Shown here one piece after another: positions 27,831 to 37,698 of a stretch of DNA of 64,000 nucleotides (the stretch's first letter is position 1; each line of letters opens with the position of its first letter). The position numbers and the translations under genes were made by a program. Source of the stretch: Escherichia phage REP2; the sequence record OQ174501.1. One strand, given 5' to 3'. Under the pieces are notes generated by a model. That model did not search any database and was not told the DNA's origin. It saw only the letters and a program-made list of their open reading frames with translations.

Positions 27831-28527
<697 letters not shown>

Positions 28528-28535
<8 letters not shown>

Positions 28536-28557
28536 GCTGATGAGGTAGTGATACTAT
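28528..28557 (+). promoter_or_regulatory. T4-type early promoter
   Basis: GTTTAC-N18-TGATACTAT. Confidence 0.7.
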
Positions 28558-28587
28558 TATCTCATCAAAATTAATTAGGAAAATAAA

Positions 28588-28845
28588 ATGAAAACTTTCA
28601 AAGAGTTTACTACAAAAACTACTATCACTGAATCTTCCCACGGTATGGAAGTAAAGCTTGGAATGGCTTTAGCTGAAGCTGAGCGTCTTTTCTCTCGTAT
28701 TAAAGAACTTGCTGCTGCAGTAGATCCTTCATCTTTTAAAGGAGACCAAACGAAAGTTAAAGCACTTTTAGCATTATGCTCCGATGCAGGAGAAATTGCT
28801 AAAAATGGTTCTAAGATGAAAAAACGATTAGAAGATTTAAAATAA
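28588..28845 (+). CDS. internal-protein-like protein with CTS-like N-terminus
   Basis: 85 aa starting MKTFKEFTTK, resembling the T4 capsid-targeting sequence MKTYQEFIAE; own early promoter. Confidence 0.6.
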   Translation: MKTFKEFTTKTTITESSHGMEVKLGMALAEAERLFSRIKELAAAVDPSSFKGDQTKVKALLALCSDAGEIAKNGSKMKKRLEDLK

Positions 28846-28865
28846 TTTCACAAAGTTGTTTACAT
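28831..28865 (+). repeat. direct repeat, copy 2
   Basis: same 31-nt sequence as 28501-28535. Confidence 0.7.
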
Positions 28866-28887
28866 AGGGTTTTAGTTGTGATACTAT
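28858..28887 (+). promoter_or_regulatory. T4-type early promoter
   Basis: GTTTAC-N18-TGATACTAT. Confidence 0.7.
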
Positions 28888-28921
28888 TACCCTATCAAAA
28901 CAAAACCAAATGGAAATCAAA

Positions 28922-29155
28922 ATGAAAACTTACCAAGAATTTATTGCTGAAACTGCTGATGTAAAAGTTGAGTTTATTTACACTGGCAAGAAAGATAAAA
29001 TGGGTGAAATGCCTCATGGAGTTCTTCGTGATGCATTAGATAATTTCGGTCAACTCGCCGCAGAAGATTACGGTGATAAAATTGTTGTTACTGGTCCTGC
29101 TGCAGTTATTGAAAAATGGGCAGCAGAAAATAAATCAATTTTTCGTAAAAAATAA
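28922..29155 (+). CDS. internal protein with canonical CTS
   Basis: 77 aa starting exactly MKTYQEFIAE; own early promoter. Confidence 0.7.
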   Translation: MKTYQEFIAETADVKVEFIYTGKKDKMGEMPHGVLRDALDNFGQLAAEDYGDKIVVTGPAAVIEKWAAENKSIFRKK

Positions 29156-29547: not shown

Positions 29548-29802
29548 GTGGTTGACCACGCAGGAAACAAGTATCCTAAGGAAGCGTATGTTCCTTCCGG
29601 GAAGGTAAATTTCCTTTTGTTTGCAGGTGATAATTATTATCCCCGTGGTGGGTATACCGATTTAATTGCTAAAGCATTCTCTGAAGATGAACTCCGTGAT
29701 ATTATCAAAGAAAATGAAAACAAACCGATGTATGGTTCTAATCGCTTTGATTGGTGGCAAATTGTAAATGCCCACAATCATACTATTGTTGATGAAGGCT
29801 GA
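29548..29802 (+). CDS. hypothetical protein (start uncertain)
   Basis: 84-aa ORF from GTG; upstream in-frame sequence looks coding but has no ATG. Confidence 0.4.
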   Translation: MVDHAGNKYPKEAYVPSGKVNFLLFAGDNYYPRGGYTDLIAKAFSEDELRDIIKENENKPMYGSNRFDWWQIVNAHNHTIVDEG

Positions 29803-30687: not shown

Positions 30688-30762
30688 GGCCCTGTAGCTG
30701 GAAGGTTCAAGCAAGCGACTCATAATCGCCAGATGGTGGTTCAATTCCACCCAGGGCCACCA
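30688..30762 (+). tRNA. tRNA-Ile/Met (CAU)
   Basis: anticodon loop CUCAUAA; by position the homologue of T4 tRNA-Ile. Confidence 0.65.
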
Positions 30763-31158: not shown

Positions 31159-31713
31159 ATGAGAAGTGATGTAGACTGGGACCAAATTAATTTGGCTATA
31201 AAAGCTGGATTAATATACCATGGTAATTTTGAAATAACACAAGAACTAATTGAAAATGTTGCTTTTCTTAAAATAACAGATAAGAAAAAATTCTTTTCTA
31301 TGACTGAATCCAAACGCTTGTCAAAATGGAAAGTATTTTGTAGGACTGCCGCCCTAAATCTTTTGAAATTTAAAGATGAATTTGATATAGAAAAAAGCTA
31401 TCGACAGGCTTTCGTATACATAATGGTAGATACTACAAATCCTAATTATTATAAAATAGGAAGAAGTATAGAACCTGATGTTAGAGTTATAACAGCAAAT
31501 ACATTTTCACCGTTTAAAAGTTTTAAAATAGTATCATTTAGATATTCCCAGGATGCAGTAGAACTTGAAAAATATATGCACAGCATTTATAATCAGGACC
31601 ATATAAATGGTGAATGGTTTTTCTTTCATGACATAAGTTCCATAGTTAAAAAATTAGATACTAAATCTACACAATTTGAAATACCAAATGAGAAACCGGG
31701 TCGCTACCGGTAA
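31159..31713 (+). CDS. GIY-YIG / T5orf172-like domain protein (possible free-standing endonuclease-like gene)
   Basis: 184 aa; C-terminal motif FVYIMVD...YYKIGRS...R...E...GEWFF resembles GIY-YIG/T5orf172 core; directly follows tRNA-Arg. Confidence 0.55.
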   Translation: MRSDVDWDQINLAIKAGLIYHGNFEITQELIENVAFLKITDKKKFFSMTESKRLSKWKVFCRTAALNLLKFKDEFDIEKSYRQAFVYIMVDTTNPNYYKIGRSIEPDVRVITANTFSPFKSFKIVSFRYSQDAVELEKYMHSIYNQDHINGEWFFFHDISSIVKKLDTKSTQFEIPNEKPGRYR

Positions 31714-31950: not shown

Positions 31951-32000
31951 CAAACACTTGCCTTAGCAGGTGGAACCCCGACAAGGTTGCCGCAAGGCTT

Positions 32001-32028
32001 AGCCCCGACCGAAAGGTTGGGGCTTTTT
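32001..32028 (+). terminator. rho-independent terminator (GAAA tetraloop)
   Basis: AGCCCCGACC-GAAA-GGTTGGGGCT 10-bp stem followed by TTTTT. Confidence 0.75.
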
Positions 32029-32030
32029 AG

Positions 32031-32038
32031 TATAAATA
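32031..32038 (+). promoter_or_regulatory. T4 late promoter TATAAATA
   Basis: exact TATAAATA about 37 nt upstream of the ORF at 32075. Confidence 0.5.
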
Positions 32039-32074
32039 AGTATATTAAAACCACGAATTAAAACAGGAAATAAG

Positions 32075-32548
32075 ATGAAATCATATGCTCAATTTTTAAA
32101 TGAAGCGGTGTTAAATGAAGCATCTAGCACTGAAATTCAAGCTGTTGCAAAAGCTGCCATTGCCGCGGGTAAATATTCCTATAAAGATGCTTCCGATGAA
32201 TCACGATTCCAATTTGCTCGTGATATGAAAGCCGAAGGATTTACAGGGAATGCAGTTAGTATGGCTTGGAAAAGTTTAGTTGCTACTGGAGCTGCTTTTG
32301 CAAAGGCTTCGGGTAAACCTGCTCCTAAAGCAGATCCTAAAGCTGCACAAGAAAAAAATATTGTTAAAGGAATTATCTCCAAATATGAAGCTATCCTTAA
32401 AGAGCTTTTAGTAATCAAAACTGAAGGCCAAAAGCTAGCTCGTGCTTATAGTTTCAAAGATAACCCACATGCTCACTCTCTTGAGTATGTTGAAGACATC
32501 CAAAAAATTATTAAAGACCGCATTTGGTCTGCTAAACAAATCAAATAA
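32075..32548 (+). CDS. internal-protein-like protein with CTS-like N-terminus
   Basis: 157 aa starting MKSYAQFLNEA; Ala/Lys-rich; late promoter upstream and terminator downstream. Confidence 0.55.
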   Translation: MKSYAQFLNEAVLNEASSTEIQAVAKAAIAAGKYSYKDASDESRFQFARDMKAEGFTGNAVSMAWKSLVATGAAFAKASGKPAPKADPKAAQEKNIVKGIISKYEAILKELLVIKTEGQKLARAYSFKDNPHAHSLEYVEDIQKIIKDRIWSAKQIK

Positions 32549-32555
32549 CATTCTT

Positions 32556-32583
32556 AGCCCTAGCCGAAAGGTTGGGGCTTTTT
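32556..32583 (+). terminator. rho-independent terminator (GAAA tetraloop)
   Basis: AGCCCTAGCC-GAAA-GGTTGGGGCT followed by TTTTT; near copy of the 32001 terminator. Confidence 0.75.
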
Positions 32584-32714
32584 GGTATCTAGGCCTTTCC
32601 AGGCCTCTCTAGACATCATTTAGTTTCTACCCTTTATAATATATTATCCTATCCTTTAATTGCCCCTCCCTGCCCTAGAATTCCCCAAAACTTTTTAAAT
32701 TTTTTTCACAAAAC

Positions 32715-35287: not shown

Positions 35288-35772
35288 TTTTAAAAACTCG
35301 CTGGTATGATTTAGATGATGGGGACGATGGCATTTCAGTTGATAGAGTTGACTGGAGTGGCTGTTCCGAAGATATGAAAAAATTGTTAATTAGGGAGTTT
35401 AGAATGGGATATCAAGCAGCTAAGCCATCTACTGTAACAGATGATAAATTCGTGTGTATTCAAAATGGTCGTGCTAAGTTAACGAACGCTGATTGGTTCA
35501 CAGATAAGAAGGTTATTCTGTGGTATATTATTAGTTTTCCTGTGACATCATTTGTATTTTGCTTCTTTGGAGAAAGTCCAGTAGGCAGAACGGAAGATTG
35601 GATTCTTTTAATTATACTTGTTAATATTTTTACAGCAGCAGTACTATCAGGAATATGGTGCGTGTTCATTGAAATGCCATGGCGGTTACGTAGGCAGCAA
35701 AAGATTTTTGATGAAAAGAAATATACTCAAAATTTAAATAATTTTATCACTGAATGCAGGAAATTAAAATGA
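35284..35772 (+). CDS. small membrane protein, paralogue family member
   Basis: 162 aa, 2 TM helices, C-terminal FITECRKLK. Confidence 0.55.
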   Translation: MILKTRWYDLDDGDDGISVDRVDWSGCSEDMKKLLIREFRMGYQAAKPSTVTDDKFVCIQNGRAKLTNADWFTDKKVILWYIISFPVTSFVFCFFGESPVGRTEDWILLIILVNIFTAAVLSGIWCVFIEMPWRLRRQQKIFDEKKYTQNLNNFITECRKLK

Positions 35773-36208
35773 AAACATTATCAGCTGGTATTATCTTTAT
35801 GACAGAAGATAAAGATTTATTTATGGGACGAGTTACTGGTTCTCGTAAGCCTGGAATGATGGCACATCGCTGGATATTCCAAAGGGGCGTGTAGAAAATT
35901 CTGATTTAAGCGCATTAGATGCAGCACGAAGAGAATGCTCAGAAGAGACTGGTTTTAACAATTATAATCCAGACCTTCTAGAAGACCTAGGTGTATTTAA
36001 ATATTCTAGTAATAAAGACTTACAGTTATTTTATTATACGATTCCAGTAGAGCATGAGATGTTCAGAAATTGCCGTTGTGAGTCTTATTTTGAAAATAAA
36101 GATGGCGTTATGATTCCAGAGATGGATGCTTTTGCTCTTATTCCTCGTACTCAGTGGCAATATGTGATGGGTCCTTCACTTTACCGAATAATGAACAGCC
36201 TCTTTTAA
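35769..36208 (+). pseudogene. nudE: Nudix hydrolase nudE (e.1), frame disrupted
   Basis: ATG frame reads MKTLSAGIIFMTEDKDLFMGRVTGSRKPGMMAHRW then stops at about 35892; the -1 frame continues DIPKGRVENSDLSALDAARRECSEETGF... (Nudix box) to a stop at about 36206; a single missing G in CTGG-GAT would join them. Confidence 0.6.
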
Positions 36209-37224: not shown

Positions 37225-37698
37225 ATGAAAACATATCAAGAATTTATCACTGAAGCAGCTATTAATTCTCAAATTATTGCTGAATCTTTTACCGATCTTT
37301 TGAAATTTAAAAAAGGTCAAAAAATCACTGCTGTATTGGATGATGGTACAGAAGTTGAGATGGATGTACAGGGATATAATTATGCAGTAGATGGAAAACT
37401 GTATAATAAATCTCATGCTAAATTTGATTCATTTGACGACTTTGTTAATACAGTTGAAGATGAAAAAACTCGTAGATCCATTGCAACTGGCGACGCTAAG
37501 GTTCTTATGGCACATGGCCATGAACGCATCCGCGCTAAACAGAATAAAATGGGCGAAGATAATTTTGCATTAGTTGGTTATCAATCTGGTAAACAAACTT
37601 ATGGCTATCAACGTACTGCTACCATGTATAATAAAAATGGTAAAATCGCTTTCGTGAATAGTAAAGGTTCTATTCAGTACGTTAAATCGTTCAAATAA
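37225..37698 (+). CDS. internal protein with CTS (ipII/ipIII-like position)
   Basis: 157 aa starting MKTYQEFITE; basic, Lys/Gly-rich body. Confidence 0.65.
   Translation: MKTYQEFITEAAINSQIIAESFTDLLKFKKGQKITAVLDDGTEVEMDVQGYNYAVDGKLYNKSHAKFDSFDDFVNTVEDEKTRRSIATGDAKVLMAHGHERIRAKQNKMGEDNFALVGYQSGKQTYGYQRTATMYNKNGKIAFVNSKGSIQYVKSFK

Follow-up and report, generated by a model that had tools for sequence, protein, structure and literature searches.

The locus between the tRNA region and e.8

The window (the whole stretch of phage DNA analysed here, 64,000 nt long) is 100% identical to the record of the Tequatrovirus REP3 (OQ174502) and is referred to by that name below. Between the tRNA region and the e genes lies a gene for a 157-aa protein (Table 1). 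On its upstream side are ten tRNA genes, a 184-aa ORF with a T5orf172 domain and the small RNAs rnaD and rnaC, and on its downstream side follows the e.8 early promoter region. The two small RNAs were identified in the window by near-identity to T4 and by the RB27 annotation; no Rfam model was found for rnaC or rnaD. An earlier sequence-only reading of this DNA had placed here a 157-aa ORF starting MKSYAQFLNEA, with an Ala/Lys-rich body, an exact late promoter in front of it and two near-identical GAAA-tetraloop terminators around it. The ORF is present as described, Ala and Lys account for 28 and 21 of its 157 residues, respectively (whole-protein pI 9.46), the promoter octamer is exact as a sequence match, and both hairpins are found.

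Table 1. Coordinates of the features discussed in the text. Plain numbers are window positions; a slash within a peptide marks a predicted cut.
Feature	Position	Strand	Description
Early-promoter segment before Ip5	28500-28590	+	near-identical to the segment before Ip6
Ip5	28588-28845		annotated internal protein of REP3
Early-promoter segment before Ip6	28835-28925	+	near-identical to the segment before Ip5
Ip6	28922-29155		annotated internal protein of REP3
tRNA gene	30688-30762	+	anticodon CAT
184-aa ORF	31159-31713	+	T5orf172/MUG113 domain; between tRNA-Arg and rnaD
Upstream copy of the 36-nt direct repeat	31998-32033	+	holds hairpin 32001-32024 and T-run; ends the tRNA/rnaD/rnaC unit
TATAAATA	32031-32038	+	exact T4 late-promoter consensus (gp55/gp33-dependent), 36 nt 5′ of ATG; putative promoter
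Shine-Dalgarno sequence AGGAAA	32065-32070	+	4 nt 5′ of ATG; read from the sequence
157-aa protein CDS	32075-32548	+	stop codon included; WCA46178.1; PHROG 2280; "hypothetical protein" in the REP3 record
CTS-like propeptide, codons 1-15	32075-32119	+	MKSYAQFLNE/AVLNE/A; two L-x-E sites, predicted cuts after E10 and E15
N-terminal domain, residues 16-76	32120-32302	+	conserved; predicted three-helix bundle (helices within 18-71)
Lys/Pro/Ala-rich basic linker, residues 77-94	32303-32356	+	KASGKPAPKADPKAAQEK; pI 9.8; predicted disordered
C-terminal helical hairpin, residues 95-157	32357-32545	+	predicted helices 88-124 and 131-154
Downstream copy of the 36-nt direct repeat	32553-32588	+	holds hairpin 32556-32579; would end the late transcript; e.8 early promoter region next
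nudE (e.1), 46-aa N-terminal piece	35754-35894	+	
nudE (e.1), 49-aa C-terminal piece	36059-36208	+	
Ip4 (DUF7412)	37225-37698		annotated internal protein of REP3
Second gene in HP3	L010:1838-2401		187 aa
Second gene in RB69 (RB69ORF149c/148c)	L009:9429-9991	minus	frameshift-split in the record
Second gene in G4500	L011:1501-2063		frameshift-split in the record

The neighbourhood also holds several features of its own. REP3 has ten tRNA genes, Tyr and Asn included, compared with eight in T4, and the tRNA gene with anticodon CAT in Table 1 is called Met by ARAGORN and tRNA-Ile in the REP3 record. The spot occupied by the 184-aa ORF is empty in T4 and holds an unrelated 116-aa ORF in T2; the ORF probably represents a mobile element, similar to homing endonucleases, that inserted among the tRNA genes. 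Among the e genes, nudE (151 aa in T4) is split into two pieces and annotated in the REP3 record just as a 126-nt "nudix hydrolase"; the broken gene is either a pseudogene or the result of a sequencing frameshift.

Conservation of the gene among T4-like phages

A comparison with homologous positions in T4-like genomes, which the sequence-only reading had recommended, finds the gene in synteny in at least six genera. Homologues of the protein are present in 511 phage records (tblastn, phage collection); AR1 is another carrier (BAI83145.1). The sources compared are Tequatrovirus (REP3, RB27, HP3, G4500 and IMG/VR loci), Mosigvirus RPN187, Jiaodavirus KP1, Marfavirus F48, Winklervirus Kc304, Karamvirus Entb_43, the Yersinia phages MHG19 and fHe-Yen9-01 and one metagenomic protein; an 11-member alignment covers Tequatrovirus, Mosigvirus, Jiaodavirus, Marfavirus, Winklervirus, Karamvirus, fHe-Yen9-01 and unclassified sources. 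Inspection of the flanks placed the gene after rnaC or the last tRNA genes in RB27, RPN187, KP1, Kc304 and Entb_43, and tRNA genes lie just 5′ of it in HP3 and G4500 as well. Homologues of e.8/e.6 are found on its 3′ side in RB27, KP1, HP3, G4500 and Kc304.

The REP3 protein is 80% identical to its RB27 homologue and 75% identical to that of RPN187. Relative to these two phages the dN/dS ratio is 0.08 to 0.12 at dS above 1, which indicates purifying selection. Residues 1-157 of the protein align with positions 1-172 of the 178 in the PHROG 2280 profile ("unknown function"; E = 1.6e-60), a full-length match; a Pfam search gave no above-threshold match.

The gene is not universal. In T4, T2 and T6 no gene was found between rnaC and e.8. 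Within Jiaodavirus, KP1 carries it (MG751100, L003:2995-3528), and for ValerieMcCarty04 (OR271596) the phage collection contains no homologue; the genomes are about 93 to 95% identical at the nucleotide level. Dispensability and polymorphic presence, which characterize the T4-type internal proteins, are thus found here as well. Since the gene is syntenic in distant genera, its loss in the T4, T2 and T6 lineages would be more parsimonious than many gains. Moreover, because all three of these phages are devoid of it, classical T-even genetics would have missed the protein. Hundreds of T4-like phages of the therapeutic type have the gene; their hosts are Escherichia, Shigella, Klebsiella, Yersinia, Serratia and Enterobacter. 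The sequence-only reading, right about the features themselves, had seen neither this wide distribution, nor the absence from T4, T2 and T6, nor the terminator-flanked cassette that is discussed below.

The putative late promoter and the terminator repeats

The octamer TATAAATA is not enriched in the AT-rich window (16 copies compared with 11.2 ± 3.2 expected) and, taken alone, is therefore weak evidence for a promoter. Its weight at this position comes from its intergenic location and its conservation across other genera. An exact copy or a 7/8 variant follows the terminator at 18 of the 19 loci examined, and the rest of the intergenic spacer has diverged. Twelve loci have the exact octamer, which occupies the same place in RB27, KP1, HP3, MHG19, Entb_43 and six IMG/VR loci, and six have a 7/8 variant, AATAAATA or CATAAATA; 7/8 variants occur in RPN187, L017, L018, F48/L021 and Kc304. 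In fHe-Yen9-01, inspection of 110 nt upstream of the gene did not reveal the octamer; here the gene abuts the preceding gene, and this is the sole locus of the 19 that lacks it. Transcription from the REP3 octamer would start a few nucleotides downstream, near position 32045. As judged from the sequence, a conserved consensus late promoter would fit expression during prohead assembly.

The two copies of the 36-nt direct repeat are 89% identical. Each of the hairpins within them has 10 pairs and a GAAA loop and is followed by TTTTT, as intrinsic (rho-independent) terminators are. The calculated free energies are −20.3 kcal/mol for the upstream and −18.3 kcal/mol for the downstream hairpin, with z-scores of −3.5 and −4.1, respectively. 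The upstream repeat region aligns almost identically with the sequence 3′ of T4 rnaC. T4 has one terminator copy, the left side of which corresponds to the first repeat of REP3, and its right flank (TTTTTGGTATCTA...) corresponds to the sequence after the second. Since recombination between the two repeats would remove what lies between them, the T4 junction is the expected deletion product. These data suggest a cassette in which the late promoter and the ORF are joined to a duplicate of the rnaC terminator and which could be deleted by recombination between the terminator repeats, a model that fits the absence of the gene in T4, T2 and T6.

T4-type phages are known to carry mobile gene cassettes flanked by promoters and stem-loops ("PeSL" modules). 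The REP3 cassette resembles these in that one gene, together with a promoter of its own, lies between repeated stem-loops, and recombination between the stem-loops could add or remove it. It differs in that its promoter is late rather than early and in that the repeat is the intrinsic terminator of rnaC. The terminator-flanked arrangement offers a concrete picture of how such genes may come and go.

A leader resembling the capsid-targeting sequence

The first ten residues of the T4 internal protein IPIII suffice for packaging (PMC9026906). In this capsid-targeting sequence (CTS), targeting depends most on residues 4 and 7 and processing most on residues 8 and 10, and gp21 cleaves after the Glu of L/I-x-E (PMC9026906). 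The start of the 157-aa protein had been described as a diverged version of this sequence, and the comparison supports the description: Y4, F7, L8 and E10, that is all four mapped IPIII positions, are kept. Relative to MKTYQEFIAE of IPII and IPIII, six of ten residues are shared; M1, K2, Y4, F7 and E10 match, with L for I at position 8, and the leader departs from the canonical CTS at positions 3, 5, 6 and 9, with E6 replaced by Q in REP3. Two sites of the gp21 type are present, L8-N-E10/A and L13-N-E15/A. The six frames of the window contain 474 Met-initiated ORFs of 50 aa or longer, and of these only Ip4, Ip6 and the 157-aa ORF fit a relaxed CTS pattern. The leader match is far beyond chance.

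The pattern persists in the diverged homologues. In all 11, M1 is retained and, counted from the Glu, position −6 holds an aromatic residue, −3 holds F or I and −2 holds L; the residue after the Glu is A, G or Q, as in the leaders MKTYNEFLTE/Q, MKFKEFLAE/A, MITFNDILAE/G, MKPFSEFLNE/G and MLNFNEFLAE/SQEINE/A, the last with A after its second site. Several members have a second L/I-x-E a few residues further on, as in the 19-residue propeptide of IPI. The leaders of KP1 and Kc304 are one residue shorter than those of the other members; the internal proteins of KP1 itself have a canonical full-length CTS. In the aligned homologues the alignable body starts immediately past the leader Glu. Mean pairwise identity is 0.54 in the leader, 0.53 in the N-terminal domain, 0.36 in the linker and 0.37 in the C-terminal domain, so the leader is constrained at least as much as the best domain. 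If it is a true tag, the leader would be a natural capsid-targeting variant useful for engineering the packaging of cargo.

Another gene with a CTS-like leader at this locus

The locus of HP3 and G4500 reads, in order, the 157-aa gene, its terminator copy, the octamer variant AATAAATA, a second gene, another terminator and the region upstream of e.8. The second gene has the leader MKTYAEFLTE/AAKL... and is also present at the RB69 locus, where RB69ORF149c starts with MKTYAEFLTEAAKL. It was found in 165 phage records (tblastn) and is missing in REP3. This type of gene resembles the 157-aa gene in its location between the rnaC terminator and e.8, its CTS-like leader, its own terminator copy and the octamer variant upstream; the two differ in their bodies, for which BLASTP and hhalign detect no homology, the shared part being the ten-residue leader only. 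The HP3 tandem gene was accordingly rejected as a detectable paralogue. Very distant paralogy of the two genes nevertheless remains conceivable because both score in PHROG 2280. Whether they are paralogues or not, the leader is, to judge from these alignments, the sole part of the two proteins that is still recognisably similar.

The body of the protein

An AlphaFold2 model built from a shallow alignment of eight sequences has a mean pLDDT of 75, with low confidence at residues 4-14. It predicts the arrangement of domain, linker and hairpin given in Table 1, and the conserved motifs of the N-terminal domain read AGKYSYKD..SRFQFARDM..GF.G..V..AWKS. Searches of the PDB by sequence, of PADLOC with the protein and of BFVD and PDB with the model (Foldseek) returned nothing usable, the fold matches being of a generic helical-hairpin or coiled-coil-like kind only. 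A search of 1.84 billion representative proteins returned just family members and two low-complexity repeat proteins, P0017 and P0018, which were rejected as spurious. Moreover, Pfam and the PHROG assignment revealed no similarity of the body to IPI, IPII, IPIII, Ip4/DUF7412, Ip5 or Ip6. The body is basic, is predicted to be all-helical and is without a recognisable fold or family. Lys residues of internal proteins contact packaged DNA (PMC3012670), and by analogy one may speculate that the basic linker would suit such contact.

A metagenomic protein, P0014 (94 aa, from a 2898-base Logan contig), is a composite of the N-terminal part of an ORF of the type at window positions 29548-29802 and the C-terminal 31 residues of the 157-aa protein, a portion that corresponds to window positions 32453-32545, at the junction ...IIKEN/PHAHS.... 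It represents either a natural deletion, in which the whole tRNA cluster and most of the gene were lost, or an assembly chimera.

A candidate packaged internal protein

The sequence-only reading had proposed an additional packaged internal protein that acts as an effector. As far as the sequence goes this proposal holds up throughout (leader, L/I-x-E site, promoter, polymorphism and tandem gene), and in our judgement the 157-aa ORF probably encodes an internal protein that is processed by gp21 and packaged in the head. Since its body is unlike the known internal protein families, it would then represent a new sequence family. The effector label, on the other hand, is pure conjecture, as neither a fold nor a family can be recognised in the body. 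The gene also behaves like an ip gene to judge from its sequence and setting: its presence is polymorphic, it lies between the classical ip loci, its product is basic and Lys-rich, and it can have a leader-bearing neighbour in tandem. A UniRef entry names the homologue from Klebsiella phage KPKp "internal head protein", an unverified annotation. The proposal had placed it far from the other ip-like genes; the distances to the classical loci on its two sides are 2.9 and 4.7 kb, and "far" is therefore a relative term.

The following sequence of events can be envisaged. The gene would be transcribed late from TATAAATA, between the two terminators, as suggested by the consensus match and its conservation, and such timing means that the protein would be made when proheads assemble. 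The N-terminal 10 to 15 residues would target it to the scaffolding core of the prohead, as suggested by their agreement with the experimentally mapped CTS of IPIII, and gp21 would remove the leader at L-N-E/A after E10, E15 or both. The mature N-terminus would be ASSTEIQAVAK if the cut is at E15 and AVLNEASSTEIQAVAK if it is at E10, and the predicted product, cut from a 17.2-kDa precursor, has a mass of about 15.5 to 16 kDa, a pI of about 9.6 and an all-alpha-helical structure. By analogy with IPI, IPII and IPIII, the mature protein would stay in the head with the DNA, possibly via its Lys/Pro/Ala-rich linker, and enter the next host with the genome. Its task there would most likely be a dispensable, host-specific first response, for example anti-defence, as for IPI and IPIII.

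An alternative reading, which we consider unlikely, is that the protein is made late and remains in the cytoplasm of the producing cell, where late regulation, the assembly of heads or the timing of lysis are conceivable roles; the CTS-like N-terminus would then be a relic, either inherited or acquired by recombination, or else an amphipathic helix retained for other reasons. In its favour are the departures of the leader from the canonical CTS, including the shortened versions in KP1 and Kc304, a body unlike that of any known internal protein, and the published virion proteomes of SH7 and ValerieMcCarty03/04, which are without a protein of this family. SH7 encodes a protein identical to the 157-aa protein, and LC-MS/MS of its virions identified 14 proteins among which this protein is absent, but so are the canonical internal proteins. 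For the Jiaodavirus phages ValerieMcCarty03/04 a deep proteome of the virions shows the canonical internal proteins in abundance, and the supplement text contains no peptide or sequence of the 157-aa family for either phage; as discussed above, ValerieMcCarty04 is without a homologue. The two proteomes are accordingly uninformative about packaging. A CTS-like protein from the ipI locus of ValerieMcCarty04, WKM80674.1 (MKSYQEFLMETE...), has no convincing peptide match in the same proteome, so deep virion proteomes can miss leader-bearing proteins. Against a cytoplasmic protein stands the pattern of constraint. A relic would not be expected to keep four CTS positions together with L-x-E/A or G across at least six genera when the rest is about 37% identical, nor would the predicted cleavage site be expected to coincide with the exact start of body homology, nor the neighbouring gene to have the leader alone in common. 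In the literature on leader peptides, RB69ORF149c and T4-like virion proteomes, nothing was found on the 157-aa family, and the Kc304 and LC53 papers report no proteomics.

The protein could also be an accessory of the prohead core that, like gp22, gp67 and gp68, is degraded by gp21 or expelled at maturation and hence is not injected; this seems improbable to us. Late-only expression, suggested by the promoter, would be in keeping with such a role, as would a model that is all-helical with a long helical hairpin and coiled-coil-like fold matches, and the sequence contains one internal L-K-E, at residues 107-109. However, prohead core proteins are conserved core genes of T4-like genomes, unlike the polymorphic 157-aa gene, and a morphogenetic role does not fit a gene that is dispensable and missing in T4, T2 and T6. 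Core proteins are, in addition, cut into many fragments (PMC9026906), compared with the one internal L/I-x-E here, which lies inside a confidently predicted helix. Finally, that the ORF is a non-functional chance frame between duplicated terminator copies, for which its absence from T4, T2 and T6 is the sole support, has a negligible probability and is refuted by the conservation pattern (low dN/dS at dS above 1, full-length homologues in at least six genera and the PHROG 2280 match); a good Shine-Dalgarno sequence and the mean confidence of the structure model also speak against it.

Relation to known internal proteins

The candidate internal protein can be compared with those of T4. Like IPII and IPIII, it has the leader positions with Ala next, is small, basic and dispensable, and is encoded in the tRNA/e region (PMC9026906, PMC9391042). 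It differs from them in a dissimilar mature body and in a second L-x-E five residues on. IPII and IPIII are processed by gp21, packaged and injected, whereas packaging of the 157-aa protein is suggested by its sequence. With IPI it shares a longer propeptide (19 residues in IPI, MKTFKEFTSTTTPVSTITE/A) and a downstream L/I-x-E/A, to be compared with E15 in REP3. The mature sequences are unrelated, and IPI* has an alpha/beta fold (PMC3012670), whereas the 157-aa protein is predicted to be all-helical. Ip4, Ip5 and Ip6 of REP3 resemble it in being small leader-bearing proteins of the same 9-kb region; they belong to the internal head or virion protein PHROGs 3155, 3499 and 8111, whereas the 157-aa ORF belongs to PHROG 2280.

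Among phage proteins, the internal proteins enter a new host first. IPI inhibits the GmrSD type IV restriction enzyme (PMC3012670) and IPIII is required for infecting ECOR17 (PMC9391042), that is, both internal proteins of known role decide host range (PMC3012670, PMC9391042). IPI provides the model for an injected, dispensable and host-specific anti-defence function (PMC3012670), and a further leader-tagged family would supply a ready candidate for a protein injected to counter host defence or to handle DNA. Collectively, the data point to the site between rnaC and e.8 as an additional ip-type locus. More tentatively, and as something that falls short of likely, this site could be a fourth, so far unrecognised ip locus of T4-like phages, in which one or two cassettes, each with a late promoter, a CTS-tagged gene and a terminator copy, come and go by recombination between the terminator repeats, with the 157-aa protein as a widespread injected effector that acts in anti-defence or is bound to DNA. 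In either case the 157-aa protein is a widespread and easily testable candidate for an injected protein, beyond the reach of the T4, T2 and T6 models.

The promoters set the 157-aa gene apart from the classical ip genes, a point against the internal-protein reading, as are the lack of enrichment of TATAAATA in the window and its absence from the inspected upstream sequence of fHe-Yen9-01. Its own promoter is of the late type only, whereas early-type promoters lie upstream of T4 ipII and ipIII and of REP3 ip5 and ip6. A near-identical early-promoter segment containing ...tttaaaataatttcacaaagttgtttaca...gtgatactatta... stands before both Ip5 and Ip6 (Table 1), so the genes of the ipI locus look like repeated modules of a promoter plus a gene, in this case of the early type.
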